Source: Syntrophaceae bacterium
Lineage (GTDB): Bacteria; Desulfobacterota; Syntrophia; Syntrophales; Smithellaceae
Reading direction: 5' to 3'
NCBI GenBank assembly: GCA_016928765.1
Contig: JAFGKC010000027.1
Span: forward strand, 1-35,282
Length of the DNA stretch: 35,282 nucleotides
The notes beneath the pieces were generated by a model. It was not told the DNA's origin, searched no databases, and was given only the letters and a program-made list of their open reading frames with translations. The translations under genes and the position numbers were made by a program. Shown here piece by piece: positions 3,640 to 27,061 of the stretch. Numbering within the stretch: position 1 is the stretch's first letter; the number at the start of each line of letters is the position of its first letter.

Positions 3640-4347
3640 TCAGGTTTTTCTCAGTGACCAAAAGGGTCCGGTTTTGCCGATTTCTTGCATCGTGGTTACC
3701 CACTCCATCATATATTCACGCATATGGGAAAAATAATCAGGATCCAGCCGCCGCCTAAACATCTGTCCCGAAAATAATTTAAGCAAATCCGGAAGAGCGA
3801 ATATGCCCTCTTCCGTACCCGGTTTAAATTGCGCCCAATTACGAAGATGTTCTTCCGACCGGAAGAATGTCATCGTCGATCAGGCGTAACTTATATTTTC
3901 CATCCATCGCGCAAAAGGCACGGCTACATAGCCAATTATTTCCTTAGGATCAACTTTTAAAATCACCCCGTCACGGACTTCCAGATGCATAGATTCGCCG
4001 CAATCCAGACACGGGGTATCTATATTTACTATTTTGCCCGGGAAAAGCCAGCTGACCGCCAGCGATTCAAAAGCTCATTGGCCAAACCATTTTTGTTGTC
4101 TGTCGATGGTGATGCGAAACTGCGTGGGCTGATTATTAAAAGGAGCAAAAGAAGCAATAAAATCCGTGCCGGGCGCCAACCAGCCGGGAATTCCCTTAGA
4201 AAAAAGTTCGCGCAGATTCTGGCGTCCTTCTTCCATGGAAACTTCAAGCTCTTTAGCTATTTCCGTATAGTGAGGAGCTTGGCCAGTGTCTACCATTCGC
4301 TTCATAATAAAATAATGAGTTTTATTCAATGCGGTAAGGTCACTCAT
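3640..4347 (-). CDS. MerB (organomercurial lyase)-like protein with two predicted selenocysteines (235 aa)
   Basis: Track ORFs 4075..4377 and 3640..3873 are in one frame, linked by a stop-free 64-codon segment. TGAs at 4077-4075 (KWFGQ-U-AFES) and 3882-3880 (SYA-U-STMTFFRSEEH) match the MerB WCALD and FCxxxHFF cysteines; PCLDCG lies between them. ATG 4347 has a GGAGGT RBS. A hairpin follows each TGA. Confidence 0.85.
3850..3867 (-). promoter_or_regulatory. SECIS-like hairpin for the second UGA of the MerB-like gene
   Basis: TTCTTCC-GGTC-GGAAGAA, perfect 7-bp stem starting 12 nt after the TGA. Confidence 0.8.
4051..4063 (-). promoter_or_regulatory. SECIS-like hairpin for the first UGA of the MerB-like gene
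   Basis: GCTG-GCGGT-CAGC starting 11 nt after the TGA; GGTC begins at +18 as in prxU. The stem is short. Confidence 0.6.
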
Positions 4348-4382
4348 GGCATTTACCTCCTGATAATAACATTTCACAGAAG

Positions 4383-4411
4383 ATAATAAATAAACACCCG
4401 AAACGTGTCAA
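4383..4411 (-). promoter_or_regulatory. sigma70-type promoter for the MerB-like gene
   Basis: TTGACA-N17-TATTAT on the minus strand, ending 35 nt upstream of ATG 4347. Confidence 0.75.
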
Positions 4412-4452
4412 GGCAATAAACTTTGGCACGGGAAATAACGCGTAATTCTAAA
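4405..4452 (+). repeat. Imperfect ~48-bp direct repeat, copy 1 (copy 2 at 10530-10577)
   Basis: GTGTCAAGGCAATAAACTT (19 nt) is identical in both copies; about 40 of 48 positions match overall by manual alignment. Confidence 0.85.
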
Positions 4453-4589
4453 GGCATTGAAGAAAAAAAGAAGTATATAATTTTCTGTTAATCTTTGGCT
4501 AATAAATAAAACCTCTCTCTCCTCAAAAAAATTACCATAATTTTTCTTAATAAATCTTTTTGTTTCAATTAGATAGAGGTAAATACACT

Positions 4590-5423
4590 TTAATATTCCA
4601 GGTAGCTGTGGAGGCCAGCGAGTATATAATTAACTCCCAGATAAGTAAAAACAACACAGGCAAAACCTACTATTGAAATCAATGACATCCTAATACCCCT
4701 CCATCCTCTCGCAAGGCGGGCATGAAGAAAGGCACCATATATAAACCACGTTATCAATGACCAGGTTTCCTTAGGATCCCAACCCCAGTATCTTCCCCAC
4801 GCGCGGTCAGCCCAGGCAGCACCCGTTATTATTCCCAGCGTCAGTAATACAAATCCAATTGATATTATCTTATAAGTTATTTCATCCAAAAAGGCTGTGT
4901 CTGGCAACAGGTTGACGATATTGTTATTAATTATTTTTTTCAAAAGATAAAGAATGCTCAAGCCGAACGCGATGGCGAAACATCCATATGCAAGAAAAGA
5001 ACTAATCACATGGCTTATAAGCCAGTTGCTTTGAAGAGCAGGAATCAACGGTTGGATCTGACAATCCAGAGTGTTTGATAAAGATACATACGCAAGTATT
5101 AAAAACGCAAAGAATACAGAAAACATACTTATAAGACTATTCTTATATTGTTTTCTTATGAGCAAGAAAATAAAAACGATTGACCAAGAAAAAAAGACGA
5201 GAGATTCATAAAAATTTGACAACGGGGCATGTCCTATTCCCAACTGATACGAATGTATCCATCGGATAATCAACGCCAGCGAATGGAGCATAAGACCACC
5301 GACGGCAACCACTGTTGCTATCTTTTCCGCATTATCTTTCCGGAAAACAACGGAAACAAGAAAGATAAAGGCCGAGAGAAAATAAAGAAACGTGACTATG
5401 CTGACAATAAAAGTGTCATTCAT
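4590..5423 (-). CDS. ccsA: Cytochrome c biogenesis System II heme lyase subunit (CcsA/ResC)
   Basis: WWD motif WADRAWGRYWGWDPKETW, HAPLSNFYES, C-terminal GLHSY, multiple TM helices. Confidence 0.95.
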   Translation of the reverse strand: MNDTFIVSIVTFLYFLSAFIFLVSVVFRKDNAEKIATVVAVGGLMLHSLALIIRWIHSYQLGIGHAPLSNFYESLVFFSWSIVFIFLLIRKQYKNSLISMFSVFFAFLILAYVSLSNTLDCQIQPLIPALQSNWLISHVISSFLAYGCFAIAFGLSILYLLKKIINNNIVNLLPDTAFLDEITYKIISIGFVLLTLGIITGAAWADRAWGRYWGWDPKETWSLITWFIYGAFLHARLARGWRGIRMSLISIVGFACVVFTYLGVNYILAGLHSYLEY

Positions 5424-6745
5424 GCTGTTTCGCCTTCCAGATATTCTGTAATCATTCTGTTTATTTTCTCCTTAAAAATATCTTTATTCTTACTAGTACT
5501 CGCCGCGATAGAAATTTCACATCCTTCCTTTTCTGTTGATACGCGAACCCATACTCTTATATGTTCAAAAAAAATACTTGATATAAATCCTACAATAATC
5601 AGGATAAAACCGATCCAGACGAGAATAACACCCGGATCTTTGTTAACCTGTATGCCGGAATAATAAACGATATCAAAATCATTTAACATAAAAACGTAAT
5701 CGCCTCTTTGTATTGGCGAGTTTTTATTCAACCAAAATATATCGTGTTCCTCACCCGGCTTTATTAAAACACCAAGCGCTGCTGGGCCTTGCCCCATATA
5801 ATCGGATTCAAACCTAGCCACGGCAAACGACAAATCATTACCGGAAACGGGGACTTTGTTCATCATATCCAGCGTTAAAAGGTTCTCTTCTTTTGTGGTC
5901 ATATTTATTACTTTAACCCGGAAATTATAGGCGCCGGCAACGCCAAAGGAAGCCTGTGAAAATTTAAAACCTTTATAAGTCAGAGGATGATTTACCCTGA
6001 TCACGCTTTTAAACACTTCTTTATCCTCATTTATTATGGTCAGGACCGTTTTATATTCTTTGGGTATCCCGTTTTTATAATATTTCAAGGAAAAATTATC
6101 GCAAGCAACATAAAAGTCGAGTTTCTTTGTGCCTTCATTCCCGAATAAATATACAGTATCGGATTTTCCGCCTTCGACCAGATTCATCTGACCACCAAAC
6201 CCCCATATGGCGCCGATTAACCCACCTGCAAAAATGAAGAGCACACTGACATGCACCAGAATCATTCCAAACCTGGAAAACTTGCCTTTTTCAATAAAAT
6301 AATAAAAAACGCCGTTGTTACTTACTCGGGTTAAAGAATTTGAAATAGATTTCAGAAACAAGCTCACTCTTTTTTCAATATCCGATTGGGGTTCTTTAAA
6401 GTACAAGGTATTCATGATCTGTGACGACGTAAACAAAGAATCGTCGATTTTCTTTCCTGATTTAATTGTTATTTTGGCGACACGCGGAATTTGCTTTAAG
6501 GTACACGCGATAAGGTTTACCGATAATAAAATTAAAAGAAAAGTGAACCACCAAGAATGATAAAGATCAAAAATGTTGAAAAATTTTAGGACATGAAAAA
6601 ATGTTTCGCCGAATATTTGCCTGTATTTATCTGGCGTTAAACCTTGCTCTATAATCGTACCAAAAATTGAGCTTGCGGCAATTACCAAAAAGAGGGTTAC
6701 AGTAAGTTTTACAGAAGAAAGTAAATCATATATTTTTGTTTTCAT
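5420..6745 (-). CDS. resB: Cytochrome c biogenesis System II protein (ResB/Ccs1)
   Basis: SIFGTIIEQ, YHSWWF, LVHVS, VNHPLTYKG, DPGVILVWIG motifs; 4-bp overlap with ccsA. Confidence 0.93.
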   Translation of the reverse strand: MKTKIYDLLSSVKLTVTLFLVIAASSIFGTIIEQGLTPDKYRQIFGETFFHVLKFFNIFDLYHSWWFTFLLILLSVNLIACTLKQIPRVAKITIKSGKKIDDSLFTSSQIMNTLYFKEPQSDIEKRVSLFLKSISNSLTRVSNNGVFYYFIEKGKFSRFGMILVHVSVLFIFAGGLIGAIWGFGGQMNLVEGGKSDTVYLFGNEGTKKLDFYVACDNFSLKYYKNGIPKEYKTVLTIINEDKEVFKSVIRVNHPLTYKGFKFSQASFGVAGAYNFRVKVINMTTKEENLLTLDMMNKVPVSGNDLSFAVARFESDYMGQGPAALGVLIKPGEEHDIFWLNKNSPIQRGDYVFMLNDFDIVYYSGIQVNKDPGVILVWIGFILIIVGFISSIFFEHIRVWVRVSTEKEGCEISIAASTSKNKDIFKEKINRMITEYLEGETA

Positions 6746-6930
6746 AATTTTTCCGGGAGCTTTGGATTACTATATATCAGAAAGAACAGTCAAGCACATA
6801 GTGCTTATGAATTGAAAAGAATTTTTGCCAGAATGCATTATATTATTGAAATATTGTTAAATCGCTGTTATAAAAAAATAAGTTAAAACTTGCTCGATTT
6901 TTCGTTAAAATTAAAAATGGGGGGCTTAAT

Positions 6931-8550
6931 ATGATAATTAAAACTAGATCGATCACTCGTGGAAAGACATGCTTTATTATCGGTTGCCTGTCATTCGTTT
7001 TACTGACAAGTATTTGTTGGGCATCCTCGTCTTCTGGCAAATCCGACGTTCAGAAATTATCTACTGTATCAAAACCGACTGCGGACCACGCCAAATTCAT
7101 TATCCTCAATCAGCACATGAAACAAGGGCCCGACGCAACCAAGGCATGTCTTACTTGCCACACCGAGGCAGCAAAACAAGTTCAAAATAATATCCACTGG
7201 ACTTGGGGATTAGACAAGATGGGAAAGGAGGGAATGGGCAAAGCCCGTATTATAAACAACTTCTGAATTTCCCCGCGTACTAACTGGTGCAGGTGCACCA
7301 GCTGCCATGCCGGTTACGGTTGGAAAGATGAAAAATTTGATTTCACGGCTCAACAAAATGTTGACTGTTTAATATGTCATGAACATTCAGGCCAATACAA
7401 GAAATTCCCTACGGATTGCGGACATCCTGCTTATAAGCAGAAGGAATTTGGCGGTAAAGTCTTTAAGCCAGTCAATCTCAATCTAGCGGCAAAGTCCGTA
7501 GGTAAACCTACTTTAAAAAATTGCGGCGCGTGCCATTTCTATGGCGGCGGCGGCGATGGGGTTAAACATGGAGATTTGAATTCTTCAATCCTCTCAGCCA
7601 ATAGAGATCTGGACGTTCACATGTCTAAAGAAGGCGCAAACCTTACATGTACCGACTGTCATACAACGGTTAATCACGAAATGTCAGGCAGGTATTACAC
7701 AAAACGCGCTTTATTAAATCGTCAAGCGACAGCGCTCGGAAGCCATCTTTCGTGCGAATCTTGTCATGGAGCGACACCCCACAAAAACTCGGCTAAACTC
7801 AATGACCACACGGACAAAGTTTCCTGTCAGGCGTGCCACATCCCCGGTTTTGCGCGGAGCTCGGTAAGCACGTTGATGTCGTGGGATTGGTCAACAGCAG
7901 GAAAATTTACAGCTGACAAAAAACCAATAACCAAAAAAGACACTGACGGAAACCCCATTTATAACACGATGAAAGGGGATATGGTCTGGGGAAAAAATGT
8001 CACTCCCATTTATGCCTGGTACAATGGCGCAATGAAATATACAACTATGAAAGACACTCTTCCGGCTAGCCGTCCAGTTGAAATTAATCAACCTCTGGGC
8101 GATTATAATGACCCGGAAGCGAGAATTTTTCCCTTCAAGTATTTCCAGGGCCGCCAGGTTTACGACGCGGAGACTAACCGTTTCGTCATAAGTAAGCTGT
8201 TTGGCCCCAAAGGTAGCGGTGCTTACTGGTCAGATTATAATTGGCAGAAGTCAGTGGAAGTCGGCATGGCTGAATCGGGAGAAAAATTCAGCGGAAAAAT
8301 TGATTTTGTTGATACAGCAATGTATTGGCCTGTTACGCACATGGTCGCGCCGAAAGAGAACTCTTTGCAATGCGCGGCCTGTCACGCTCGTAACGGGCGT
8401 CTTGCCAGCGTTGCGGGTTTCTACCTTCCGGGACGTGATCGGGTTAAATGGCTGGATATTATTGGCTGGTCATTGTTTATTCTCTCAATCATTGGCGTAT
8501 TGGCACATGGTTTTGGACGTTTAATTTTCCGGTTGAAAAGGAGTAAGTAA
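6931..8550 (+). CDS. Octaheme tetrathionate reductase (OTR)-family cytochrome c with predicted selenocysteine at residue 112 (539 aa)
   Basis: Track ORFs 6931..7266 and 7576..8550 are in frame with no stop between except TGA 7264-7266. Readthrough gives eight CxxCH motifs (CLTCH, CTSCH, CLICH, CGACH, CTDCH, CESCH, CQACH, CAACH), HWTW...GK...NNF-U, and GGGGDGVKHGD. N-terminal signal peptide and C-terminal TM anchor. Confidence 0.9.
7284..7301 (+). promoter_or_regulatory. SECIS-like hairpin of the octaheme cytochrome
   Basis: CTGGTGC-AGGT-GCACCAG, perfect 7-bp GC-rich stem starting 17 nt after the TGA. Confidence 0.8.
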
Positions 8551-8551
8551 A

Positions 8552-9163
8552 ATGAAGCAAGTTATTATGTATCAAGGCACTGAAAGGTTATGGCATTGGT
8601 TACAGGCGGCTTTAATAATTTTTCTTCTGCTAACCGGTTTTGAACTACACGGAACTTACGAAATATTCGGCTATGAAGACGCGTATGAGCTTCACGCATT
8701 TGCCGCTTGGACGATGATAATAACAACCCTTTTCGCTATTGTCTGGCATATATACACTCATGAGTGGAGACAATACATACCAACACTTAAAGATCTCGAT
8801 AAAGTAATCCGCTGCTACCTAATAGGTATATTTTATGATGAACCGCACCCTTTTAAGAAAAAGCCAGAAGCAAAATTAAATCCATTGCAAAGGCTAAGTT
8901 ATCTGTATATTTTATTAATTGTGTTCCCAGTTCTTATAATCAGCGGATTGGTTTGTTTTTTTTACAACGAGCTCCAGGCTATGGGTTTGCCCATATCTTT
9001 TGAAGCATTCGCGATTATTCATACGATCTGCGCATTTTTGATGCTTATCTTTCTGGTGATACATATTTATATGACCACCACAGGCAAAACTCCCTGGGCA
9101 TACACTGTGTCGATGATCACCGGACGTGATGAGATTGAAGAAGAAGATACTAAGCTGGCATAA
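8552..9163 (+). CDS. Cytochrome b membrane subunit (PhsC / Ni-Fe hydrogenase cytochrome b family)
   Basis: ERLWHWLQA, KLNPLQRLSY, His pairs in four TM helices (HT...HIYM); starts 1 nt after the octaheme gene stop. Confidence 0.9.
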   Translation: MKQVIMYQGTERLWHWLQAALIIFLLLTGFELHGTYEIFGYEDAYELHAFAAWTMIITTLFAIVWHIYTHEWRQYIPTLKDLDKVIRCYLIGIFYDEPHPFKKKPEAKLNPLQRLSYLYILLIVFPVLIISGLVCFFYNELQAMGLPISFEAFAIIHTICAFLMLIFLVIHIYMTTTGKTPWAYTVSMITGRDEIEEEDTKLA

Positions 9164-9169
9164 ACGCAA

Positions 9170-9720
9170 ATAAAAAATATTACGCTATATCTCGATTCAG
9201 ATATTCAGTTAAGCGAGTTAACTGCCAAAAATTACGACAAGGCAATGAACATAGGCTCATTAGGTTTTTACAAAGATTTTATAAAAAAGCCATTGGGAAC
9301 ATAGTAATACAATCAGACGATCAAATCTTTGATTTAGGCTGTGGAACCAGCAGAAATGCTTTTCTAATGATTCATTATCCTGGTTCAACGGGCTATATCA
9401 ATGGTTTTGATATATCTCACAATATGGAAAGACAGTTCGTTCTAAGATTAAAACAAGGCCAAAGAATTCAATTCAAGAACCAACGCATTGATATGCCTTT
9501 TAATCTACAAACCATGTATTTAGTACGAATCAGTGTAATTCATAACATGTTGAACCATTTAAACCCAAGCGGGAGTTTTCATATTCTCGATTTTGCTTAA
9601 TTTGATTTAAAAAAAATATGTTTTCTTTATCTTTTTGTCTTTGAAAAAATTGAATACAAATACGCCTTTGATTTCATCGAAAGAAACTGAAAGAAAATAT
9701 TAAAGCAGATACTAGCCACA
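9170..9720 (+). pseudogene. Degraded class I SAM-dependent methyltransferase (UbiE-like); ends approximate
   Basis: TAKNYDKAMNIGSLGFY, frameshift in the A-run near 9283-9288, then QIFDLGCGTSRN (motif I), GFDIS, HLNPSGSFHILDF; in-frame stops at 9598-9600 and 9688-9690. Confidence 0.75.
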
Positions 9721-9743
9721 ATTTTATTTGAAATGAGGCATTA

Positions 9744-10382
9744 CTAAATTTCAATAACTTTTCCCGCGCCGCCTTCAATATACTGATCAGGGTAGAGAGA
9801 TTTTATCTCCTGTTTATATTGAGTGCAGTGGGTTGAACAAATCAATCCCAGGCCATTCAACGATTCAGGTCTGTTCCCATGCAAGCCCCCTATAATTCCG
9901 TAAACCTTGCCGAATTCGGAAGCCGAGCTGATTATTTCTTCTATTGGCGGATGCGAACATCCTGCTATAATTACAATACCTCTTTTGGTTTCAACGCAAA
10001 GAGATTGCTCTATTCCCTTTAATTCTCCCGTGGAATAAATTCCATCGTAAAGTTTTTTTGATTTTTGTATTTCAATAACCTCTTTCGCGTTTTTAACTCC
10101 CCGGAAAGAACGCGGAATCCAAACTCTAACATTATTGTTCTGATCCAGAAAAGCAGACAGGCCTCCCGTATGATCAAAATGAGCGTGAGAAATAAAAACA
10201 TCTTCGATTGCTTCAGGATCAATCTCCAGTGTTTTCATGTTTGATAAAAGTATTGACCCACTCGCTCCTGTGTCAAAAAGAATTCTTTTCCCCTTAGCTT
10301 CTACCAGCGCCGAAAAACCCCAGTCAGCCTGAAGATCATTTCGGGAAACGATATTGTCGTAAATTATGGTGGCTTTCATCAT
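9744..10382 (-). CDS. MBL-fold metallo-hydrolase (COG1237 family)
   Basis: WGFSAL, LFDTG, SHAHFDHTGG, GCSHP, GGLH, HCT motifs. Confidence 0.9.
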   Translation of the reverse strand: MMKATIIYDNIVSRNDLQADWGFSALVEAKGKRILFDTGASGSILLSNMKTLEIDPEAIEDVFISHAHFDHTGGLSAFLDQNNNVRVWIPRSFRGVKNAKEVIEIQKSKKLYDGIYSTGELKGIEQSLCVETKRGIVIIAGCSHPPIEEIISSASEFGKVYGIIGGLHGNRPESLNGLGLICSTHCTQYKQEIKSLYPDQYIEGGAGKVIEI

Positions 10383-10507
10383 ATCTTTCCTTTCATGAAT
10401 TTGTCATAATTATTTCAATCTCCTGACATGTATTATTATCCTTTAAACAATTTATGCTTTGTTTATAAATTTAATAAAAAATATTAATATAATAAACAAC
10501 TTAATTA

Positions 10508-10536
10508 ATGATAAGGAAACGTCCATGAGGTGTCAA
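10508..10536 (-). promoter_or_regulatory. sigma70-type promoter upstream of the MBL hydrolase
   Basis: TTGACA-N17-TATCAT on the minus strand. Confidence 0.7.
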
Positions 10537-10577
10537 GGCAATAAACTTGTGCGCGGAAAATGACACGTAATTTCAAA
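10530..10577 (+). repeat. Imperfect ~48-bp direct repeat, copy 2
   Basis: Matches 4405-4452. Confidence 0.85.
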
Positions 10578-10721
10578 AGAATAGGCTAAAAAAGATTAGC
10601 AAATATCGTTTGACAAAATAAAGGCAAAGTTGTTTTATATTTCCGCCCGATAAACTGCGGAATTTCAAATAGTTCCGGCATAATAAATTGAAATTTTGTA
10701 AGCATTTTAGCTTGGTGCGTT

Positions 10722-11168
10722 ATGCAGGTTAATTCACAAACTACCCCTTCAAAAATAAGAAGCAGTATGCTTTGGGGTATTCTCTTTGTGCTCATTATCT
10801 TAAACGCGTGCACATTAAAAAAGATTGTCCCCTTGCCTGCCGCTCCCCCGGAAGGCGTCTGGACTTATCCGGGCGGCGGCGCGGAACCGATGTCGATAAT
10901 TTTCAATGCGGATGGAACTTTAACATTTGCCGGCGGTTTTTTAAAATTCAACCCGTCAAACTGGCAATACGACAAAAAAACACATAAATTGCAGGTAAAA
11001 GTCCCCGGCAACGAAACATTCGAAACATATTGTGGCGACGATTATGATGAAGAATATTCCTGCCTGCACTTCAACAACATCACCGATACCTTCGAATGCA
11101 AGCTTACCGAAAAAACTAAAAGCATCAACTTTCTGGGATGGAGTTATTTGCGACAGCAAAAAAAATAA
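10722..11168 (+). CDS. Hypothetical lipoprotein (start may be 10767)
   Basis: Hydrophobic stretch followed by lipobox LNAC. Confidence 0.6.
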   Translation: MQVNSQTTPSKIRSSMLWGILFVLIILNACTLKKIVPLPAAPPEGVWTYPGGGAEPMSIIFNADGTLTFAGGFLKFNPSNWQYDKKTHKLQVKVPGNETFETYCGDDYDEEYSCLHFNNITDTFECKLTEKTKSINFLGWSYLRQQKK

Positions 11169-11248
11169 GCCGTCCCGAATAGGTATTTTATAAAAATAGT
11201 AATTTTAACCCATCAAATGCTAAGTCTTCATATAAGGAGGCAATTTTT

Positions 11249-11830
11249 ATGAATATGAAATACAAGAAAATAATCGTCGCGGCATTCATCATTATGGGAT
11301 TATTAATTTTTCTAATAACAGGTTACGCGGAAGATCCGAGGCCAAATCCGGGAATGCCCACACCTTCCACAGGTCTTCCAAAAATAAAAGTGCCTTCCCT
11401 ACCCGAGAAACCTGATCTTTTGATACGCATAAGCGGCTCGGGCTTAGGAGGAGCAAATGATCTTTACCCTGATAATCCCGGCATGGGGCCTTCAGCATTC
11501 AGAGTAAGCGGACAGGTTCTGAACGCCAAAAGAGCCGCTGTCCGCGGATGCGAAGTCAATATACTTCTTTCAGCAGACAGAAAAGTATCGCCTGACGACA
11601 GATTGCTAGACAGAATTTTAATTACTGAAACCATTCCGCCTTTTGACGGCGCGAGGTTTGGCTCCGCCACCCTACCCAGAAAAGACTACGGCATTGCCGG
11701 TATTCCGGCAGGCACATACTTTATTTGCGCTAAAGTTGACACTGCAAACAGAATACCCGAAACTAATGAAAACAATAATGAAGATTGCGTCCCGGAGGCA
11801 ATACGCATACACCCGGCAGGATCAAAATAA
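11249..11830 (+). CDS. Secreted protein with a CARDB-like domain
   Basis: Signal peptide, Pro-rich linker, KPDL...AGTYFICAKVDTANRIPETNENNN; AGGAGG RBS. Confidence 0.7.
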   Translation: MNMKYKKIIVAAFIIMGLLIFLITGYAEDPRPNPGMPTPSTGLPKIKVPSLPEKPDLLIRISGSGLGGANDLYPDNPGMGPSAFRVSGQVLNAKRAAVRGCEVNILLSADRKVSPDDRLLDRILITETIPPFDGARFGSATLPRKDYGIAGIPAGTYFICAKVDTANRIPETNENNNEDCVPEAIRIHPAGSK

Positions 11831-12002
11831 TAAGAAGTTTTGCAGTCCAATATAAATTGACATAAATACCTAGATTTTTAGGAGTGGGATTTTTTGCGGA
11901 AGTAAATTTAGCTACAAGCAATTTCATCCATAATCTCTTGTTTAATGCTTTTAAAAGAATATAGTTTTATAGTTAATGATTTAGAAAAGAATAAGATTTA
12001 AA

Positions 12003-12712
12003 ATGTCAAAAAGAATTGTACGTAAAACACAAAACAAAAGTGCGAGTACTATTTTCTTAGCATGTAATTTCACTAACAAACGTGTCAAGAAACATTTTGA
12101 CGGTTTAAAGAAAAAGTTAGAAGAGTTTCTTCCAGTCCGTATATATATTAGCGATCAAGTTCAGGGCGAGGGCGCACGAGATTTATGGAAAGATATTACT
12201 CAAGAAAGTCTTCTCTAGTAATCTGCGACGTAACGTCTTTCCGGCCAAACGTGATTCTTGAGCTTGGGTTTGCATTAGCAAATAAGAAAGCCAAAGAAAT
12301 ATTAATATGCCGCGATCTAACTCCAGATGGGAAAAAAAGAGTAAGACAGAGATGGTTGTTAAGTGACATTTCTCATCTTCATAGAATTGAATATAAAACA
12401 TTTAATATACTCGATGAACATATTCTTAAATATGTTATGGCAATGAGACCTATTAAAAACTTTAATCGCTTTATTGCTTTCATGAAACGGCAAAAAAAAT
12501 TATCTGAAAAAGCATACATTACCGAAGCACTCGAAGTACTGAGAGAGATTCGCGATAGTGGGCCGATTCCACGTCGAGAATTTAAATCGCGCCTTGATAA
12601 TCGAGATGTTGATGCTAAAATTCTCGGAAATCTTTTAAAACGTTTTGAATTAGCCAGACCAGAACCAAGTAAAGATGGTTGTTGGTGGCTATTTGACAAT
12701 ATAACGGGCTAA
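12003..12712 (+). pseudogene. Frameshifted nucleoside 2-deoxyribosyltransferase-like/TIR-like fold protein with a probable winged-helix C-terminus
   Basis: ORF 12003..12218 (IFLAC...DLWKDITQ) and ORF 12185..12712 (KSSLVICDVTSFRPNVILELGFALA) join into one domain across a frameshift near 12200-12207. Confidence 0.6.
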
Positions 12713-12784
12713 ATTTATCTTTATTAATTTGACGTAAATATTCTGTTTTTTTGCTTTAAAATTTAAATTATTAAGGAGGCAAAC

Positions 12785-13330
12785 ATGCGCATAATAAAAA
12801 TTATTTTAGTTGTTTTTATGTTCTTAGTATTATCAATCTACGCAGTGGCGGATGTTCAGCAACCGCCTGCCCCGGCAAGCAATGCCGCTACGGATTTCAC
12901 TCTCCCTGATCAGGACGGAAAATTATGGACGCTTAGCGAAGTTTTGAAAAATTACCGCGGTGTAGTGCTTGCCTTTTATCCCAAAGACGATACAGGCCTC
13001 TGAATTAAAGAATTTGTTGAGTTTCAACAAAACATCAAAAAGTACGAAGAACGCAATATCAAAATTCTGGGCTTAAGCCGAGATTCGGCCGAATCGCATC
13101 GCAACTTTATCGCCAAACACAAGCTCAATGACCTGACGCTTTTGGTGGATGAAAAAGGCAAAATCGCCAAGCTCTATGACGCCGACCACTGGCTTTTGCC
13201 GCTTTCCAAGCGTGTTTACATAATTATTGATAAAAAAATGAATATCATTTACAGAAAGGATATGGGCTTTGGCCTTCTGGAAAATCAGACGGAAACGCTG
13301 ATTGGCGAAATCGAGCGTAACATAAAATAA
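12785..13330 (+). CDS. Exported BCP/PrxQ-like peroxiredoxin (AhpC-TSA family) with predicted Sec73 (181 aa)
   Basis: DFTLPDQDG...FYPKDDTGL-U(TGA 13001-13003)-IKE...LGLSRDSAESHRNF, continuing in frame into ORF 13142..13330; signal peptide; AAGGAGG RBS. Confidence 0.88.
13013..13031 (+). promoter_or_regulatory. SECIS-like hairpin of the BCP-like gene
   Basis: TTTGTTGA-GTT-TCAACAAA starting 9 nt after the TGA; loop G at +18. Confidence 0.75.
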
Positions 13331-13417
13331 AAGCTCAAAAAACGCATTACTTTTAGCAATTTAATTTCGATAAAGTATATTTAACATTATCATAATGCAG
13401 TTATTGGAGATTTTACT

Positions 13418-13957
13418 ATGCGATTCAAATTGATATCTATAATTGTTTTCTTGATAATCACCGTTATCTTTTCCGGTTGCACTCGTAACTACGTCGTCAA
13501 ACCTTTTAACATCGAACCAGCGCTAGTTCCAAAATTTCAAGCTAACGGTTCGATTAATCTAATTAATGCCCAAATCCCGGGCACGCAGAAAGTATTTCGC
13601 TCCGGTCCGGCTATTAACTGGGTTGGCGATTTATACGAGTGGACCGGCCAGGCAATTGAGCTGCTTGCCTCTGAACTCGAACAAAGAAAAATGAAAGTTT
13701 CCCCCGACTCTGCAAAAACTTTGAAATTATCGGTTACTGAGGGAAAACTTTTGAGAGAGGCGACCGGGGTACGCTGTGTAATTACACTTAAAGTTATCGC
13801 CGGCAACGGCTATTCTAAAGAATTCATTGGAGAAAATATCCACCGCGCCTCGCCGTTTGGTGAAATGGCAAGATACTACGCTGGTGCTAACGCTCTAACC
13901 GAAGCTGTGATTGCCATACTTAATGATAAAGAATTGATACGCTATTTTGAAGAATAG
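13418..13957 (+). CDS. Hypothetical lipoprotein
   Basis: Signal peptide with lipobox FSGC; GGAG RBS. Confidence 0.7.
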   Translation: MRFKLISIIVFLIITVIFSGCTRNYVVKPFNIEPALVPKFQANGSINLINAQIPGTQKVFRSGPAINWVGDLYEWTGQAIELLASELEQRKMKVSPDSAKTLKLSVTEGKLLREATGVRCVITLKVIAGNGYSKEFIGENIHRASPFGEMARYYAGANALTEAVIAILNDKELIRYFEE

Positions 13958-13958
13958 A

Positions 13959-18543: not shown

Positions 18544-18918
18544 ATTACAACTCTCTCGTAAATTTTATGCTACGCTCATACAATAATTTTGCTTGCCTGT
18601 AAAGAAAATAATTAATGTTTCTGTAATGCTATTTTAGATATTTTATCTGTTTCTTTGCAAATCAGGAAAACTTTATCGCTGATGAACAAAAGAGACTGTT
18701 GTTAATAATAAAAATATTCTTCACACGCAAAAAATTCATTACCACTCTTTTTCATGTTTGAATTATGTCAATGAATTTATTTTGAAATAAATGATTATTT
18801 TACTTGAATTATATAAAATTATTTTGTTATACTACATACGGTTAATAAAATAATTTCGCCCCGACAACCGGAAACGAAAAACAAATCTCATTCTACTGGG
18901 CGGCAAGGCGGAAATTTC

Positions 18919-19926: not shown

Positions 19927-20209
19927 GTATTATCATCAAAACTTCAACTACCGCCTCCAATAATTTCCTAAAAAATAATTTTTAAAAATGAAACAAAGAA
20001 AAAGATGATAATAAATTTAAAGATGTGGCCAAAAATAAGAAGCAATTCTCTTGTTCAAAAACAATATTTTTTTGATCGCGGACAAATTATATTTTACGCG
20101 AAGTGCAATTACGTTTTTTCCCTTTTAATAACGATTGACGAATTTTAAATATTGTGTAATGTAATGATAAACATATGTATTGCAGTATCTTTAAAATCAC
20201 GAGGAAATC

Positions 20210-21079: not shown

Positions 21080-21156
21080 GTATTATTCATGCCTACTTTT
21101 CATATATTAATTAAAAAGGCTGCGTGATTTAACTTATCTCATTTATTTAATATACT

Positions 21157-21557
21157 TTAATCAAACGCAGAACTGGTTTTCCATACTTCCCAAACCTTGC
21201 CTACCAGATCGGGGCCGGGTTTGAGCGTTGGCTTACCCGGTTTCCAGCCCAATGGCGTGGCCTCGGTTCCCTTGCTGTTGCGGACATGCTGAAAGGCCTG
21301 CATCTGTCGTAAAGTTTCGCCCACGTTACGTCCTACCGGAGGAGTAAGCACTTCAAAACCCTGGATAATGCCATCGGGATCGATAAGAAATCTGCCGCGC
21401 GCCTCCACGCCCGCATCTTCCAGATAAACGCCAAAAACGGAACCGACTTTATCTCCTTTATGGCTTTTTGTTTTGTGATTTCTTTTTTATTTTCAACTTT
21501 TTCACCAACAGACCTACCTATAGTTCTGGCACATCCAGTATTGTTTTCAGCGGCTAT
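21157..21557 (-). pseudogene. prxU: prxU pseudogene with an internal deletion
   Basis: ATA in place of ATG; diverged N-terminus (GCART...EKVENKKE...AIKE) fused out of frame to [21 protein letters not shown]...SSAFD, nearly identical to 26336-26640. Confidence 0.9.
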
Positions 21558-21680
21558 AAATTATTATATTCTTACTAGTTTAACAATTTCGTTCGCCTAT
21601 TAAAGACTTATCTTCACAATCATTGTTAACAATGTTGGCTTTTCCATTTATACAATTCATAAATACACAAATCCATCCCG

Positions 21681-22985
21681 CTAAAAGTAGTAGCCTATTC
21701 GCAATTCAATGCGATAATCATTTTGTTTTTCTCCGAATTCAGAATCTCCTGCGCCTGTGATAAAACCTGCGCGAAGTCTAAGTTCCAAATTGGTAATGCC
21801 GGTGTAGAGCAACTCTGGTATGATACTGGCACTTAAGTCATCCATATTGATCATGCAGGTGAGCGACGGCGAAAAATAAAGGATGCCGAACGGTTCCTTC
21901 TGGATTAACCGAACGTACAAATAATTACGCATGGCACTGGACCTTGCGTAGCCAGATTCGGCAAGCTGCATCGCCCGGCCAAGTCCCGTCAGATCACCCG
22001 ACGTTTGATAGGCATTGAATCCACTGGAAATGAGACTGTAAAAGTTTTTCATCTCATCACGGCTGAAGCCAGCACTGTTATGATAAAACTCCATGATCGT
22101 AGTTAGATCGAATGAAGTGAGATACCTCAAGCCAACCAAAAAGCTGTGCGCCTCGTCTTCAACCTGTCTTGCCGCGCCGGCTGGGTCCATAACGGTTTTG
22201 CGATGGTTGGTAGTCCATGCGTATTCCCCGTGAATTTCAAAATTTGTGGTAAGGTTGCGGGAAAAATCAAAGCCGTAACGATTTGGACGGCTGCCGCCGG
22301 CCATAAACAACAAATCAATATCCGTATCATAAAAAAGGAAATACAGGCGGCCCGCGATGTTTAGATGGTTCGTGTTACCAAAGTCACTATTAATGTGTTC
22401 GTAAACGGGAAAAAGCACCGGCGTGAAGGAAAGAGTTTTGAGCGGTCCGCCAAAACTGCGAATGAAATCAGCAGTGGCAATAACGTAACCTTCCATCGCC
22501 TGTTCGGGATCATCCGGGTCTTTGGGCCGATCGGCAAAAGCAACGGGGTTCCAAGCGTAACCCTTACCCCATTTCAATGTCTTCTTGCCGACGTCGATTT
22601 TAACGGACGTCAGCGGTTTTGTCGACGCGTAAGCTTCGTAAAATGTGGTCTTTTCCGAACCATTTGTGTGATCGTTATATTGAAGGTCGGTGTTGAGGCG
22701 GGCAAATATCCGTAGAATGCTCTTTTCGTAGCTTCCTTCCAGCCTCACCCTGCCGTTGGCTTCCCCCAGAGTTTGCCGGTGCGAATCGTCATAAAAACGC
22801 AACTTATAAAAAGCGGCATCCGTATCCAGGCCATAAAGAACGGGCCGGGCTTCTACATAACCAGAAAATTGGTAAGGCTTCTTTTCAATTTCGGAAAGAT
22901 CGAAGGTATAATTCTCCTCGGCCAACGCCAAAAAAGGGAATGCCAAAAACAGCAAAGCCAGGAAGATTAACCCAGATCGTTTCAT
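21681..22985 (-). CDS. Predicted outer-membrane beta-barrel protein associated with the Lol-like ABC cassette
   Basis: Signal peptide, GKKTLKWGKGYAWNP, C-terminal GYYF; abuts the LolA-like gene. Confidence 0.7.
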   Translation of the reverse strand: MKRSGLIFLALLFLAFPFLALAEENYTFDLSEIEKKPYQFSGYVEARPVLYGLDTDAAFYKLRFYDDSHRQTLGEANGRVRLEGSYEKSILRIFARLNTDLQYNDHTNGSEKTTFYEAYASTKPLTSVKIDVGKKTLKWGKGYAWNPVAFADRPKDPDDPEQAMEGYVIATADFIRSFGGPLKTLSFTPVLFPVYEHINSDFGNTNHLNIAGRLYFLFYDTDIDLLFMAGGSRPNRYGFDFSRNLTTNFEIHGEYAWTTNHRKTVMDPAGAARQVEDEAHSFLVGLRYLTSFDLTTIMEFYHNSAGFSRDEMKNFYSLISSGFNAYQTSGDLTGLGRAMQLAESGYARSSAMRNYLYVRLIQKEPFGILYFSPSLTCMINMDDLSASIIPELLYTGITNLELRLRAGFITGAGDSEFGEKQNDYRIELRIGYYF

Positions 22986-23720
22986 CTAGCGCAGCGACTC
23001 CAAATTCGGCATGAAGGTAAGTGTGAATATTTCATCCTTGAACGTCCGCTTTTTTACCTTGGCCATAATCATGACAGATTTGTAACCTTTATAAAGCGGG
23101 CTGTCTGTTTCGGTGACCGCTGGCCGGACGATACCGCCGCCGAAATCCTTCACTTCTTTGAAATAAAGGGTTTTGATCAGCATATTCGCCTCGGTCAAGC
23201 ATTCAATTTTTGTCGGCAGCTTTTTCTTTTTATCCACCCAGATTTTGAGCTGATCATAGGCCACACTTTTGGTTTTGGCTTTAAGATACAGAAGATACTC
23301 GCTACTTTTTTCTTCCACCTTCGCCACATTGTATTCAGCGTTGTAATCCAGTTGCATAATGTCTGCATTATTAAATACCCCGCCCACAACCGATTGCATG
23401 CTGGTTATGCGGATGGGCTTGCCGACATTGGGAATGTTGAGCCACATGTTGTCGCCCAGGCGCAACGTGCTTCTGCCTTTTTCACTGGCCGGCGCCAGAA
23501 AGACGGAGGCCACTTTGTCAGTACCTTTTTTAACAGTAAAAAGGGTAAATTCTTTTTTCTTGCCATTCGGTTCGATATTGATTAGTTTGCGATAAGATTC
23601 GTAAGATTCCGGAGAAAGATTACGATCCACTTCTTTAAGTAAATTTGTGCCGTCCACAGCAAAAGCGTAAACCGGCAAGGCGATAGCCAGGGCAAGAACG
23701 AAATTAATTATTTTAAACAT
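22986..23720 (-). CDS. Outer membrane lipoprotein-sorting protein (LolA-like)
   Basis: Signal peptide, FLAPASEKG...NMWL...P, YDQLKIWVDK, LIKTL motifs. Confidence 0.85.
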   Translation of the reverse strand: MFKIINFVLALAIALPVYAFAVDGTNLLKEVDRNLSPESYESYRKLINIEPNGKKKEFTLFTVKKGTDKVASVFLAPASEKGRSTLRLGDNMWLNIPNVGKPIRITSMQSVVGGVFNNADIMQLDYNAEYNVAKVEEKSSEYLLYLKAKTKSVAYDQLKIWVDKKKKLPTKIECLTEANMLIKTLYFKEVKDFGGGIVRPAVTETDSPLYKGYKSVMIMAKVKKRTFKDEIFTLTFMPNLESLR

Positions 23721-23732
23721 GATGATTTTCTC

Positions 23733-24119
23733 CTATTGAATTACTTTTTTGACGGCATCGACAACAGTTCCTTTGAATGTAAGACAATTAATGTGCTTTG
23801 CTTCCATCGCTGCAATCATTTTATTGCCGAAATTACTGGCAATAATCATTGTAACACCTTTACTAGACAAGTAATCAACTACCATAATGCTTGCTCCACC
23901 GCCAGCATCCTTGTGAGGATTATTAATTTCTTCAATTAATTTTCTCTTACCGTCAAAAATGAGAAAATAATGACCTCTTGCCGCCACGGGGCTTACAATT
24001 GAAGCTACGGTATTTCCTTCCGATATAACCGCTATCTTCTGCTTATCTGCCCACGCCATGAAGAATGTGACGGTCAAAACAAAAACAACCGCAAATCCTA
24101 ACAAAAGTATTTTTCTCAT
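23733..24119 (-). CDS. NifB/NifX-family (FeMo-co binding-like) domain protein with a signal peptide
   Basis: KIAV...AARGHYFLIFD...NPH...GGGA...IASNFG; AAAGGAGG RBS before ATG 24119 (MRKILLLGFAVV). Confidence 0.75.
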   Translation of the reverse strand: MRKILLLGFAVVFVLTVTFFMAWADKQKIAVISEGNTVASIVSPVAARGHYFLIFDGKRKLIEEINNPHKDAGGGASIMVVDYLSSKGVTMIIASNFGNKMIAAMEAKHINCLTFKGTVVDAVKKVIQ

Positions 24120-24132
24120 AAAAACTCCTCCT

Positions 24133-25371
24133 TTATACATGTCGCAGCGCTTCAATCGGTTCCATCTTGGATGCCTTAATCGCGGGTTGAAGACTTGCCG
24201 CTACGGCAACCACAATAACAATGACCGGCACAAAAAGCAGATCAAAAAAGGACAGTTTTGCAGTCAGTAGCAAACCTTTTTGTTGACCGAAATCAAAACT
24301 AATGCCAATTAAGTTGACAATGCCAATAATTAAAATTCCGATCAAAACGCCGATTATTGCGCCGACCACACCCATGCAAAACCCTTCAATAATAAACATG
24401 GACCTAATTTTTCCCGGCAATGTCCCGATGGCAGCAATTGTTCCGATTTCGCGGATGCGTTCATAGACAGCCATAATCATAACGTTCATAATGCTGATGA
24501 TCACAATGGCAATGAGCATGATGCGAATGAAAAAAGTCATGACATCAATCATCCGGGCAATGTTGAAAAAAGGCGAGAGATCTTCCCACGAATGCACCTC
24601 AAACATCGGCTGTCCCTGCTTGTTGACTTCTTCCATCACTGTTCCTTTGAGTTGCCGTACAACAGCGGCAAGTTGGCTGAAATCTTTCAATCGGACAGCT
24701 ACTTCGCTTACTTCCGTTTCGGTCATGCGCAGAACCTCGGCCGCGTCTTCAATATGAACATAACCGTCTCGTCCGCCCGGGCCGGTAGCGCTCTCTAGAA
24801 TGCCCGAAACGATGAATTGCTTGCCGTTGACCGAACCATCCGCGTTGGTCGCCACTACTACGACTGGATCGCCGGGTTTCACTTTCATTCCCTTGGCCAG
24901 AAGCGCGGGAATCAAAATCTCTCCCCTTGCAAGAGTCGGCTTGCCCTCCATAATACGAGAAGGGAAAAGAGGGGCTGTTTTAAACTCTGCTTCGGGGTCA
25001 ATGCCGTTTAAACGAATGTTGGTTGTCTCGGTAAAGTTGCTGAACATTCCTCCGAACTTAAGACGGGGCGAAAAAGTTTCCACATGCTTATTCGACCTAA
25101 GTATCTGAGCTATTTTTTGATAGGCTGCCTGTTTCATATTCAGGTTCAGCGGCAGGTTGTCGATGGAAGCGACATAGCCTTTGCGATGCAACTGAAGGTG
25201 TCCCATCATGGAATCAGTAATCTGGCCGGTAATCATGGCTTTGAATGATCCGCTGATGGAAACAAAAACCAGCACAAAGACAACTCCAATCGTGATTAGG
25301 GAGGCTGTAAGCAATGTTCGCCGTTTATAGCGGATTAGATTACGTATGGCGATTTTAAAAAGATTACGCAT
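24133..25371 (-). CDS. ABC transporter permease (LolC/E, FtsX-like)
   Basis: AIRNLIRYKRRTLLT, VYERIREIGTIAAIG, PIEALRHV. Confidence 0.92.
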   Translation of the reverse strand: MRNLFKIAIRNLIRYKRRTLLTASLITIGVVFVLVFVSISGSFKAMITGQITDSMMGHLQLHRKGYVASIDNLPLNLNMKQAAYQKIAQILRSNKHVETFSPRLKFGGMFSNFTETTNIRLNGIDPEAEFKTAPLFPSRIMEGKPTLARGEILIPALLAKGMKVKPGDPVVVVATNADGSVNGKQFIVSGILESATGPGGRDGYVHIEDAAEVLRMTETEVSEVAVRLKDFSQLAAVVRQLKGTVMEEVNKQGQPMFEVHSWEDLSPFFNIARMIDVMTFFIRIMLIAIVIISIMNVMIMAVYERIREIGTIAAIGTLPGKIRSMFIIEGFCMGVVGAIIGVLIGILIIGIVNLIGISFDFGQQKGLLLTAKLSFFDLLFVPVIVIVVAVAASLQPAIKASKMEPIEALRHV

Positions 25372-26068
25372 GGGCGGAACCTCCTTTCACTTCTTTACCG
25401 GCAAGTTCTCCGTCCACCAACCGGTAGATGACTTCCGCTTCACCGACAATTTTTGTGTCGTGAGTGGAAAAAATGAAGGTGGTTCCTAGCTCGTCACGCA
25501 TTTTCTTCATTAGCCCAATCACGGTGTAGGCTGTCTGAGAATCCAAGTTGGCCGTGGGCTCATCGGCCAAGACCAGCACAGGATTGGTAACCAACGCGCG
25601 GGCAATTGCCACCCGCTGCTTCTGACCACCAGAAATTTGCTGGGGATATTTGTTCCTCTGATCGGCCATCCCGACCGCATCAAGCATTTTCACGATTCTC
25701 TCTCTGCGCTCACTAGGTTCGATATTCTGGACCATGATCAAGGGATATTCAATGTTTTCATAAACAGTCAGGACAGGGATCATATTGAAGTCCTGAAAAA
25801 TGAATCCCAGATTCTTTCCCCGGAAGGCGGCACTTTCTTTTCTAGAAAGCGGCGCTACATCGAACCCCGCGACCGTCAGTTTGCCTGTCGAGGGTTTATC
25901 CAGGCAACCGATCAAATTTAAAAGTGTTGTCTTCCCGCTTCCTGACGGCCCGACAAAAGAAACAAACGAAGCGGGGTCGATTTCAAAATCCAACCCCTGG
26001 AGGGCATGTACTATCACGTCTTCCGTCTGGTAATCCTTGTAAATGTTTACCGCCGTAATTAGTGCCAT
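25364..26068 (-). CDS. ABC transporter ATP-binding protein (LolD/MacB-like)
   Basis: GPSGSGKT, ISGGQKQRVAIARAL, LADEPTANLD, STHD. Confidence 0.95.
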   Translation of the reverse strand: MALITAVNIYKDYQTEDVIVHALQGLDFEIDPASFVSFVGPSGSGKTTLLNLIGCLDKPSTGKLTVAGFDVAPLSRKESAAFRGKNLGFIFQDFNMIPVLTVYENIEYPLIMVQNIEPSERRERIVKMLDAVGMADQRNKYPQQISGGQKQRVAIARALVTNPVLVLADEPTANLDSQTAYTVIGLMKKMRDELGTTFIFSTHDTKIVGEAEVIYRLVDGELAGKEVKGGSAHA

Positions 26069-26283
26069 TTTATTAATTCCTCTGTATATTTATGTTGTGT
26101 TGAGTTCGATTTTTTCGATCATGGTTGATGCCCGATTGGACAGCGTAAAGTTCAGAATCTTCAGTTCAGAGAACGGCTCCTCAGTTTTATATCCGCCCTG
26201 AAATAGGCAAACAAAACGAAAACTATTAGCAAAATAGAAATAGGGAAAATGCGCCGCATGAAAATTCCTGAACAAAAATATTA

Positions 26284-26317
26284 CGGCGGGCAACCTCATA
26301 AAAAAAGCCGCCCGCCG
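26284..26317 (-). terminator. Hairpin downstream of prxU (probable terminator)
   Basis: CGGCGGGC...GCCCGCCG stem, extendable by G-U pairs, followed by TAATATTTTTG; the U-tract is imperfect. Confidence 0.55.
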
Positions 26318-26335
26318 GTTATTTGTTAAAGAAGA

Positions 26336-27061
26336 TCAGTCGTCAAAGGCTGAACTGGTTTTCCAAACTTCCCAAACCTTGCCTACCAGATCGGGGCCTG
26401 GTTTGAGCGTCGGTTTGCCCGGCTTCCAGCCCGATGGCGTGGCCTCGGTTCCCTTGCTGTTGCGCACATGCTGAAAGGCCTGAAGTTGACGTAAAGTTTC
26501 AGCCACGTTACGTCCTACCGGCGGGGTAAGCACTTCAAAGCCCTGGATGATGCCATCGGGATCAATAAGAAATCTGCCGCGCGCTTCCACGCCCGCATCT
26601 TCCAGATATACGCCGAAGACGGAACCAACTTTTCCTCCGCCATCGGAAAGCATCGGGAAAGGAATGCCGCCTTTGACCATTTTAGAAAGTTCATGTTCGT
26701 CCCACATTTTGTGGACAAAAACACTATCCACGCTCATGGATAATACTTCCACTCCAAGTTTCTGGAACTCCGGATATTTTTCGGCGACCGCCGAAATTTC
26801 CGTTGCTCAGACAAAAGTGAAATCGCCAGGATAGAAGCAAAGGCTCACCCATTTGCCAAGATAATCGGAAAGTTTTATATTGATAAATTTACCTTTATGA
26901 TAAGCCGGGGCGGTAAAATCCGGCGCCTTTTTGCCAACGGTTACCATAGTTCTCACCTCCTTGATGGCTTCTTGTTTGGGGGTTTCTTTTTTATTGTCAA
27001 CTTTTTCTCCGACCGGACCGCCCGTAGGCCTGGCGCACCCGGCCTTGATTTCCTCAGCCAT
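26336..27061 (-). CDS. prxU: Selenocysteine-containing peroxiredoxin PrxU (241 aa, Sec85)
   Basis: [10 protein letters not shown](TGA 26809-26807)-ATE joins track ORFs 26807..27061 and 26336..26752; AhpC-type [14 protein letters not shown]. Confidence 0.95.
26779..26796 (-). promoter_or_regulatory. SECIS-like hairpin of prxU
   Basis: TTTCGGC-GGTC-GCCGAAA starting 10 nt after the TGA. Confidence 0.85.

Follow-up and report, generated by a model that had tools for sequence, protein, structure and literature searches.

Four predicted selenoprotein genes with five selenocysteine codons in a 23-kb region of a Syntrophaceae genome

The contig JAFGKC010000027.1 of the Syntrophaceae bacterium assembly GCA_016928765.1, analysed over its whole length of 35,282 nucleotides (hereafter the window; contig C80 of a 2.1-Mb assembly of 222 contigs), contains five in-frame TGA codons in four genes lying within 23.4 kb. 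These genes encode a MerB-like protein, an octaheme cytochrome c of the OTR family, a BCP/PrxQ-like peroxiredoxin and the peroxiredoxin PrxU. Reading the TGA codons through joins open reading frame (ORF) pieces into four full-length genes, and the five UGA codons almost certainly encode selenocysteine (Sec), as judged from their sequence context. An earlier reading of the DNA, made from its letters alone (the sequence-only reading), had placed five such codons in four genes and interpreted them as Sec codons followed by selenocysteine insertion sequence (SECIS) hairpins; all five lie where it put them, and the interpretation is borne out by control sites, conservation, covariation and the presence of Sec machinery in the genome. 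It is very probable that the region as a whole is best explained by genuine Sec codons, ordinary bacterial SECIS elements and a co-location that is partly inherited.

The gene with two such codons (3640-4347, minus strand) encodes a MerB-like protein of 235 residues with predicted Sec at positions 92 (codon 4075-4077) and 157 (codon 3880-3882); its true stop (3640-3642) is also TGA. The protein passes the Pfam superfamily model only (MerB, PF03243; 78.9 bits, cut-off 27) and scores under the NCBIfam cut-offs for SaoL (43.5 against 140 bits) and MerB (34.5 against 200 bits). Aligned to MerB structures, U92, E95 and U157 take the places of Cys96, Asp99 and Cys159, a Sec/Glu/Sec arrangement. Matches were found in 55 of the 301 genomes of a class-level sample, and nearly all full-length ones, down to 42% identity, carry exactly two TGA codons. 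Public protein sets hold Cys/Cys forms (P0023 and P0042) as well as Cys/Sec forms, the latter called as proteins of about 155 residues cut at the second TGA, while some database entries show W at both sites and look like an artefact of an alternative genetic code.

The second gene (6931-8550, plus strand) encodes an octaheme cytochrome c of the OTR family (TIGR04315; 595.8 bits, cut-off 375), with predicted Sec at residue 112 (codon 7264-7266). Eight CXXCH motifs can be read in its translation, which begins with a signal or anchor segment and ends in a hydrophobic tail. In the alignment with PDB 1SP3 (381 bits) U112 corresponds to Cys64 and K104 to Lys56. Cys64 follows the haem ligand Lys56 by eight residues and precedes the CXXCH motif of haem II by ten. 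In 2004 Mowat and co-workers reportedly found that Cys64 takes part in catalysis. The Lys56 ligand and the C74-H78 motif are given in the accessible part of PMC3769277. Of 19 Cys-type homologues fetched, three distant ones gave no motif, and all 16 others have Cys at the U112 column. The 26 genomes of the sample with a match divide by identity: one TGA is present in all six intact matches of at least 52% identity and none in matches of 49% or less. The Cys-type matches stop at about residue 493-506, and the Sec-type ones align to the end of the query, including the C-terminal hydrophobic segment; because only the latter include this tail, the Sec-OTR clade seems to be tethered to the membrane at its C terminus.

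The two remaining genes encode peroxiredoxins, and both proteins match PF00578 with a TxxU motif, the signature of the Sec-peroxiredoxin class: T-G-L-U in the BCP-like protein (AhpC-TSA, 102 bits) and T-F-V-U in PrxU (126.9 bits). The BCP/PrxQ-like protein (12785-13330, plus strand) carries a signal-like segment at its N terminus and predicted Sec at residue 73 (codon 13001-13003), aligned with the peroxidatic Cys of PDB 2YWN; it stays under two NCBIfam PrxQ cut-offs (65 against 260 and 52.8 against 140 bits). Its matches, found in 44 of the 301 genomes, are confined to the family to which the window belongs, and each of the 46 listed matches longer than 400 bases contains one TGA. PrxU (26336-27061, minus strand; 241 residues) exceeds its NCBIfam cut-off clearly (NF040737, 421.3 bits against 270), which supports its use by the sequence-only reading as an internal control. 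Its predicted Sec, residue 85 (codon 26807-26809), aligns at the peroxidatic position, and its second TGA (26336-26338) is a true stop followed by a terminator-like hairpin. Of 101 family genomes, 49 contain PrxU, and every full-length match has a single TGA. The PrxU-BCP pair suggests that selenium-based defences against peroxide inside and outside the membrane are coordinated.

A decayed copy of PrxU lies nearby (21161-21560, minus strand). In this pseudogene a 322-bp internal deletion has removed the Sec codon together with the SECIS hairpin, joining 110 bases from the 5' part (82 of 110 identical) to 290 bases from the 3' part (264 of 290) with a shift of the frame. One congener (G304) has a match to the same PrxU residues as the pseudogene (139-240, 93% identity).

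Each of the five TGA codons is followed by a hairpin with a perfect stem of 6-8 bp and a loop of 3-5 nt. These are the apical hairpins of MerB-like SECIS-1 (4047-4063, minus strand; 6 bp, loop GGUCA) and SECIS-2 (3850-3867, minus strand; 7 bp, loop GGUC), and those of OTR (7284-7301, plus strand; 7 bp, loop AGGU), the BCP-like gene (13013-13031, plus strand; 8 bp, A/U-rich, loop GUU, -5.9 kcal/mol) and PrxU (26779-26796, minus strand; 7 bp, loop GGUC). With positions numbered from the A of UGA, the first G of the loop falls at +18 in MerB-like SECIS-1, BCP and PrxU, at +20 in MerB-like SECIS-2 and at +26 in OTR; three of the hairpins share CGGTC and the others have AGGT (OTR) and GTT (BCP) loops, exactly as the earlier description had it.

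That ordinary stops might carry similar hairpins equally often was considered with genome-wide controls and is not borne out. A criterion chosen post hoc to cover all five window hairpins was matched after 8 of 351 terminal TGA codons of ORFs of at least 150 residues, one of the eight being a real FdhA Sec codon, and after 24 of 880 terminal TAA and 7 of 300 terminal TAG codons. Within ORFs it was matched at 740 of 27,948 out-of-frame TGA triplets and 164 of 5,820 in-frame Cys codons, so that the control rate is 2-3% throughout, against 5/5 at the window TGAs. A stricter hairpin with a GGTC loop follows only 11 of the genome's 70,684 TGA triplets. Sec codons account for five of the 11, with three in the window and two in FdhA genes, and the other six, having no plausible reading frame, were taken as chance occurrences. 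The mean folding energy of the 45 nt downstream is -13.5 kcal/mol for 13 Sec codons, compared with -4.6 kcal/mol for the 351 terminal TGAs and -7.7 kcal/mol for 600 random Cys codons.

The hairpins are constrained as RNA: their nucleotides are invariant at synonymous sites where flanking codons vary, and compensatory changes occur. All six pairs of MerB-like SECIS-1 form in 29 of 29 distinct orthologue sequences, with a compensatory change from G-C to C-G in three. Among 27 distinct sequences, the outer pair of SECIS-2 is U-A in 14, is exchanged in a compensatory way for C-G in 11 and does not form in two, its five inner pairs being invariant, and the Arg-Ser codons CGG TCG within it are fixed in 30 of 30 orthologues while the flanking codons vary. 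Six other Sec-type loci retain the OTR hairpin, five of them with G-U in place of G-C at one pair; the only mismatch occurs in a broken copy (G173) that also carries a TAA. The 21-nt core of the BCP hairpin is identical in the window and 20 orthologues with variable flanks, and two further orthologues show a compensatory change from U-A to C-G.

The genome encodes Sec machinery, including the selB and tRNA-Sec genes whose absence would have spoken against the sequence-only reading: a tRNA-Sec gene was found by aragorn on contig C79 (9536-9632), and selB is present with a score above cut-off (345 bits). SelD is also encoded and carries a TGA of its own, and the 3' part of selA lies at a contig end. 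A second aragorn tRNA-Sec match wraps a contig end and is probably an artefact. Immediately after the tRNA-Sec gene on contig C79 (about 9470-11040) come a gene whose product has a PF11823 domain ('Se/S carrier protein-like') and one that resembles carbohydrate kinase genes. On contig C16, about 450 bases upstream of the selB match, a TGA at about 2448 that lies in no plausible frame is followed by a GGTC-loop hairpin; the selAB mRNA of Escherichia coli contains a SECIS-like regulatory element.

A scan of the genome for read-through frames with coding potential, followed by Pfam searches, gave a selenoprotein set of at least 12 genes with 13 Sec codons, which is a lower bound. Seven more genes besides those of the window encode SelD, a HesB-like protein, a UxxC Prx-like protein, an NADH-oxidase/CoA-disulfide reductase (CoADR)-like protein, two FdhA and an ArsC-like protein. 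A family match spans the TGA in all of these except SelD, which rests on other grounds, as does a candidate exported MerP/HMA-like selenoprotein on contig C87 (12735-13061) with a GCGSU motif and an 8-bp hairpin with a GUU loop, whose NCBIfam score is sub-threshold only (MerP, 44 against 92.6 bits). In the 13 Sec hairpins the loop G lies between +18 and +27, and the loops are GGUC(N) in five and GUU in three, with GGU, AGGU, AGUU, CGGGC and UGGAU occurring once each.

The hairpin signature proposed in the sequence-only reading for finding further selenoproteins proved of use but weak. Among 32 filtered hits, 11 are Sec codons and one is an out-of-frame TGA within PrxU; of the rest, two could be assigned to no family, and in 18 the TGA is not spanned by a family match. 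The Sec codons of SelD and the HesB-like gene, two of the 13, were missed. With about 2-3% false positives per site, a precision of 34% after filtering and a recall of 11/13, the hairpin alone cannot serve to call selenoproteins. Several candidates were discarded: a HipA gene on contig C156, the domain of which begins past the TGA; candidates without a family on contigs C142, C150, C162, C219, C107 and C27; and 17 further hairpin-positive ones without a family match spanning the TGA. In the suggested comparison with the SECIS elements of selD, fdh and hdrA, both FdhA genes share the GGUC loop and SelD has CGGGC; the HdrA-like gene on contig C141 has no TGA and hence is unusable as a comparator.

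A mechanism consistent with these observations would be the established bacterial one. The hairpin starts 10-17 nt past the UGA and presents G(G)U in its apical loop 18-26 nt downstream; SelB carrying Sec-tRNA(Sec) would bind it, so that the ribosome inserts Sec and does not stop. In all four proteins the predicted Sec takes the place of a catalytic or active-site Cys: both metal-binding Cys residues of the MerB fold, the peroxidatic Cys of the two peroxiredoxins and, in OTR, a conserved Cys that lies past the lysine haem ligand and ahead of the haem-II motif. The inherited core of the region comprises the PrxU-BCP pair, adjacent in most related genomes, and, nearby in several, the MerB-like gene with its FAD/Fe-S oxidoreductase partners; in this genome the OTR-cytochrome b pair is located between them, beside resident cytochrome c maturation genes.

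The region is denser in selenoprotein genes than expected by chance, as had been proposed, since a scan statistic for 4 of 12 genes within 23.4 kb gives P = 0.0025 under random placement on 2.1 Mb, the gene number being a lower bound. Part of the arrangement recurs in relatives. Of the 34 family genomes with both PrxU and BCP, 23 have the two genes less than 100 bp apart and six more have them 4-15 kb apart on one contig; the MerB-like and BCP genes share a contig, no more than 11 kb from each other, in 6 of 10 genomes. In genome G279, PrxU, BCP and a cytochrome b-OTR-ResB-CcsA module are found within about 10 kb, and this group adjoins the same gene block as flanks PrxU in the window.

Directly 3' of OTR lies a gene for a cytochrome b of the PhsC/Ni_hydr_CYTB type (8552-9163, plus strand), which is likely the quinol-side partner of OTR and follows it in 6 of 6 other Sec-type loci. 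Divergent from OTR on the minus strand (4590-6745), Pfam identifies genes of System II cytochrome c maturation, ResB (5420-6745) and CcsA (4590-5423), which adjoin Sec-OTR in 4 of 6 other loci. Because this ResB is the only one in the genome and 10 of 14 congeners have ResB, while none of the eight congeners searched has OTR, the ResB-CcsA genes were regarded as resident, and their import together with OTR was rejected. A unit of the MerB-like and OTR genes flanking ResB-CcsA was also rejected, the two not co-occurring in other Sec-OTR genomes. Given its position beside cytochrome b and cytochrome c maturation genes, OTR looks respiratory. The label of a stress region, given by the sequence-only reading, is fair for PrxU and BCP and would be tentative for the MerB-like gene and OTR.

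Downstream of the MerB-like gene, on the minus strand, lie genes for an AraC regulator (2589-3443), a C_GCAxxG_C_C protein (1888-2514), a CCG-domain Fe-S protein (786-1817) and an FAD_binding_4 oxidase cut by the window end (1-786). Among 11 relatives, nine have a CCG homologue immediately downstream of the MerB-like gene (one of the nine with an intervening C_GCAxxG gene), and in seven an FAD_binding_4 homologue lies beyond it. Upstream of PrxU, also on the minus strand, are genes for a small redox-disulfide-domain protein (27134-27370) and a CoADR-like flavoprotein with a rhodanese domain (27371-29071); in genome G275 a CoADR-rhodanese homologue and a PrxU remnant are found directly upstream of the MerB-like gene. 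Several neighbours from families that are selenoproteins elsewhere use Cys here (786-2514 and 27371-29071): the C_GCAxxG_C_C protein (TIGR01909 '(seleno)protein', 50 bits), the CCG/GlpC-like Fe-S protein and the CoADR-like flavoprotein, of which a paralogue on contig C205 carries Sec. Five ORFs of 77-193 residues after the OTR module and around BCP (9367-13957) have no Pfam or NCBIfam match; a homologue of one of them (10722-11168) lies between BCP and the MerB-like gene in genome G023 and beside the MerB-like gene in G180.

That the TGA codons are real stops, and the four genes split, truncated or decaying, is very improbable. Gene callers do cut such genes, as seen in the MerB-like fragments of about 155 residues, one PrxU copy in the window is indeed a pseudogene, and the OTR copy in G173 has a TAA in addition; against this, the frames are open and homologous on both sides of each TGA, the TGAs stand exactly at the catalytic Cys columns and have been kept in dozens of genomes without other stops, the hairpins are under constraint at the RNA level, and the Sec machinery is present. 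Still harder to credit is that TGA is read everywhere as an ordinary amino acid such as Trp or Gly. The W residues at both positions of some MerB-like database entries would agree with it, but 353 of 1,543 long ORFs terminate in TGA under an otherwise standard code, tRNA-Sec and selB are encoded, the homologues have Cys and not Trp or Gly at these columns, and in-frame TGAs with a family match across them are few and followed by hairpins. The sequence-only reading had further taken the hairpins for a lineage-specific SECIS consensus marked by CGGTC, a view that now appears rather improbable and was not upheld. In its favour, GGUC loops occur in 5 of 13 Sec hairpins and the hairpin sequences are nearly invariant within the family; the GGUC sequence is, though, contained in the SECIS loop of E. 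coli fdhF as well. The other eight Sec hairpins have GUU, GGU, AGGU, AGUU, CGGGC or UGGAU loops, the last two, in the SelD and HesB-like genes respectively, showing that the G(G)T signature does not cover even all Sec hairpins of this genome, and the invariance holds within each gene family, which is what elements located inside coding sequence should show. Moreover, all features lie inside the general bacterial consensus, given in the accessible part of PMC13188914 as a loop of 3-9 nt, a stem of 4-16 bp, a spacing of 16-37 nt, a G at the first or second loop position with G or U next to it on the 3' side, and an energy of -7.5 kcal/mol or lower. The UGA-to-apical-loop spacings of the window hairpins (17, 19, 24, 17 and 17 nt) are within this range, all five have the G followed by G or U, and four are within the energy limit (-15.0 to -21.5 kcal/mol), the BCP hairpin being the exception.

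A more serious alternative, to which we give somewhat less than an even chance, is that the co-location has no functional meaning and arose by local rearrangement and insertion beside an old PrxU-BCP pair. In the window unrelated genes (GGDEF, cell-wall and ABC transport) separate PrxU from BCP, at a distance of 13 kb, the PrxU pseudogene marks a rearrangement, OTR was not found in the eight congeners searched, the MerB-like and Sec-OTR genes do not co-occur elsewhere, and the genes occupy both strands in at least four transcription units. The adjacency of PrxU and BCP in most genomes holding both, the proximity of MerB-like and BCP genes, the low P of the clustering, the compact PrxU, BCP and OTR module of G279, and the CoADR homologue and PrxU remnant beside the MerB-like gene of G275 speak against it. 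The clustering is real and partly conserved; one functional system is not established.

Several points weigh against the preferred reading, of genuine Sec codons with ordinary SECIS elements in a partly inherited neighbourhood. Sec insertion is deduced from sequence, the hairpin criterion was fitted to the five sites it describes, and the BCP hairpin, at -5.9 kcal/mol in both 60-nt and 47-nt folds, is outside the published energy limit, although it is invariant or compensated in 22 orthologues despite this weakness. Across orthologues only the apical stems hold, the lower stems that folding predicts having little support, and an Rfam search of the window with E values up to 1 returned no SECIS family and two chance snoRNA-like matches. 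The assembly is a draft (completeness 86%, contamination 3.5%) with selA present only in part. As regards a functional unit, OTR was not found in any of the eight congeners searched, a MerB-like match is present in none of the five genomes with an intact Sec-type OTR, PrxU and BCP are on different contigs in 5 of 34 genomes and the MerB-like and BCP genes in 4 of 10, and the four window genes are distributed over both strands as separate units interspersed with unrelated genes. The P value of the cluster assumes 12 genes, a lower bound, and uniform placement; with 20 genes it becomes 0.02.

A broader reading would make the region a local form of a family-wide selenium-dependent redox neighbourhood; taken as a whole it is unlikely. 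Under it a cytoplasmic and an exported Sec-peroxiredoxin would derive from one PrxU-BCP operon. The Sec/Glu/Sec enzyme of MerB fold would work with an FAD/CCG (HdrD-like) oxidoreductase, either as a lyase for organometals or organometalloids beyond classical organomercurials or as a diselenide centre recycled by the CCG protein. Sec-OTR and cytochrome b, finally, could form a quinol-fed periplasmic reductase of polysulfide or tetrathionate, with Sec acting as it does in MccSep. If this were true, the genes would lie together because selenium or sulfur stress controls them jointly.

Catalogue entries already exist for PrxU, Sec-peroxiredoxins and Sec-OTR: the accessible part of PMC13188914 lists peroxiredoxin (TxxU) and HesB-like proteins among selenoproteins and the Sec form of TIGR04315 as 'GenBank annotated'. 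The two-Sec MerB-like family and the PrxU-BCP pair go beyond the published catalogues searched. One MerB-like selenoprotein entry appears in the accessible part of PMC9312934, and the form with two Sec residues was not found in the catalogues and open literature searched for MerB, alkylmercury lyase and SaoL selenoproteins. Standard annotation truncates all four genes, so that the capacity of these uncultured, syntroph-like anaerobes for redox chemistry and respiration is underestimated. A putative MerB-fold enzyme with selenium at both metal-binding positions and a predicted Sec-OTR merit experiments.

In comparison with known systems, the window hairpins share all essentials of the general SECIS model (bSECISearch of Zhang and Gladyshev, as given in the accessible part of PMC13188914), from which the BCP element departs in being weaker than the energy limit; three window loops are GGUC, as in both FdhA genes. 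The window PrxU agrees with the family NF040737 in score and in the Sec at the peroxidatic position, and is distinguished by its pairing in relatives with a second, exported Sec-peroxiredoxin of BCP type. A selenocysteine peroxiredoxin was reportedly described under the name PrxU by Sohling and co-workers in 2001.

The MerB-like protein shares with organomercurial lyase MerB (PF03243; PDB 3F2G and 5C17) the fold and three aligned catalytic positions, which are U/E/U in place of C/D/C, and it scores under the NCBIfam cut-offs; no merA or other mer gene is among the annotated window neighbours. SaoL (NF040728; Haft and Gwadz, bioRxiv 10.1101/2022.07.06.499078) is another parallel in having a MerB fold with Sec at the equivalent of Cys159, in occurring in anaerobes and in being truncated in databases. 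As described in the accessible part of that preprint, SaoL has Cys99, Asp102 and Sec162, its single Sec standing in a CU dipeptide, whereas the window protein is predicted to have Sec at both Cys positions, Glu for Asp, and YAU instead of CU. The nine-gene SAO neighbourhood is not matched either: no ABC transporter lies beside the window gene, whose neighbours are FAD/CCG oxidoreductase genes and not the SAO transporter set. The window protein belongs to a different branch from SaoL.

The OTR of Shewanella oneidensis (1SP3, TIGR04315) resembles the window form in its eight haem motifs and the position of the lysine ligand; the window form differs in the predicted Sec in place of Cys64, in its C-terminal hydrophobic tail and in the neighbouring cytochrome b and ResB/CcsA genes. 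A functional study of a Sec-type OTR was not found in the literature searched. The nearest functional parallel is MccSep of Geobacter, characterized in the accessible part of PMC13510729 as a pentahaem selenoprotein polysulfide reductase with no tetrathionate activity. Like the predicted Sec-OTR, MccSep is a periplasmic multihaem cytochrome c from Desulfobacterota with one catalytic Sec near the active-site haem, but it belongs to another family and has five haems, a Cys-ligated active haem and a tetrameric structure (PMC13510729). MccSep, which was solved recently, is a parallel and not a demonstrated relative of Sec-OTR, and offers a direct working model for it.

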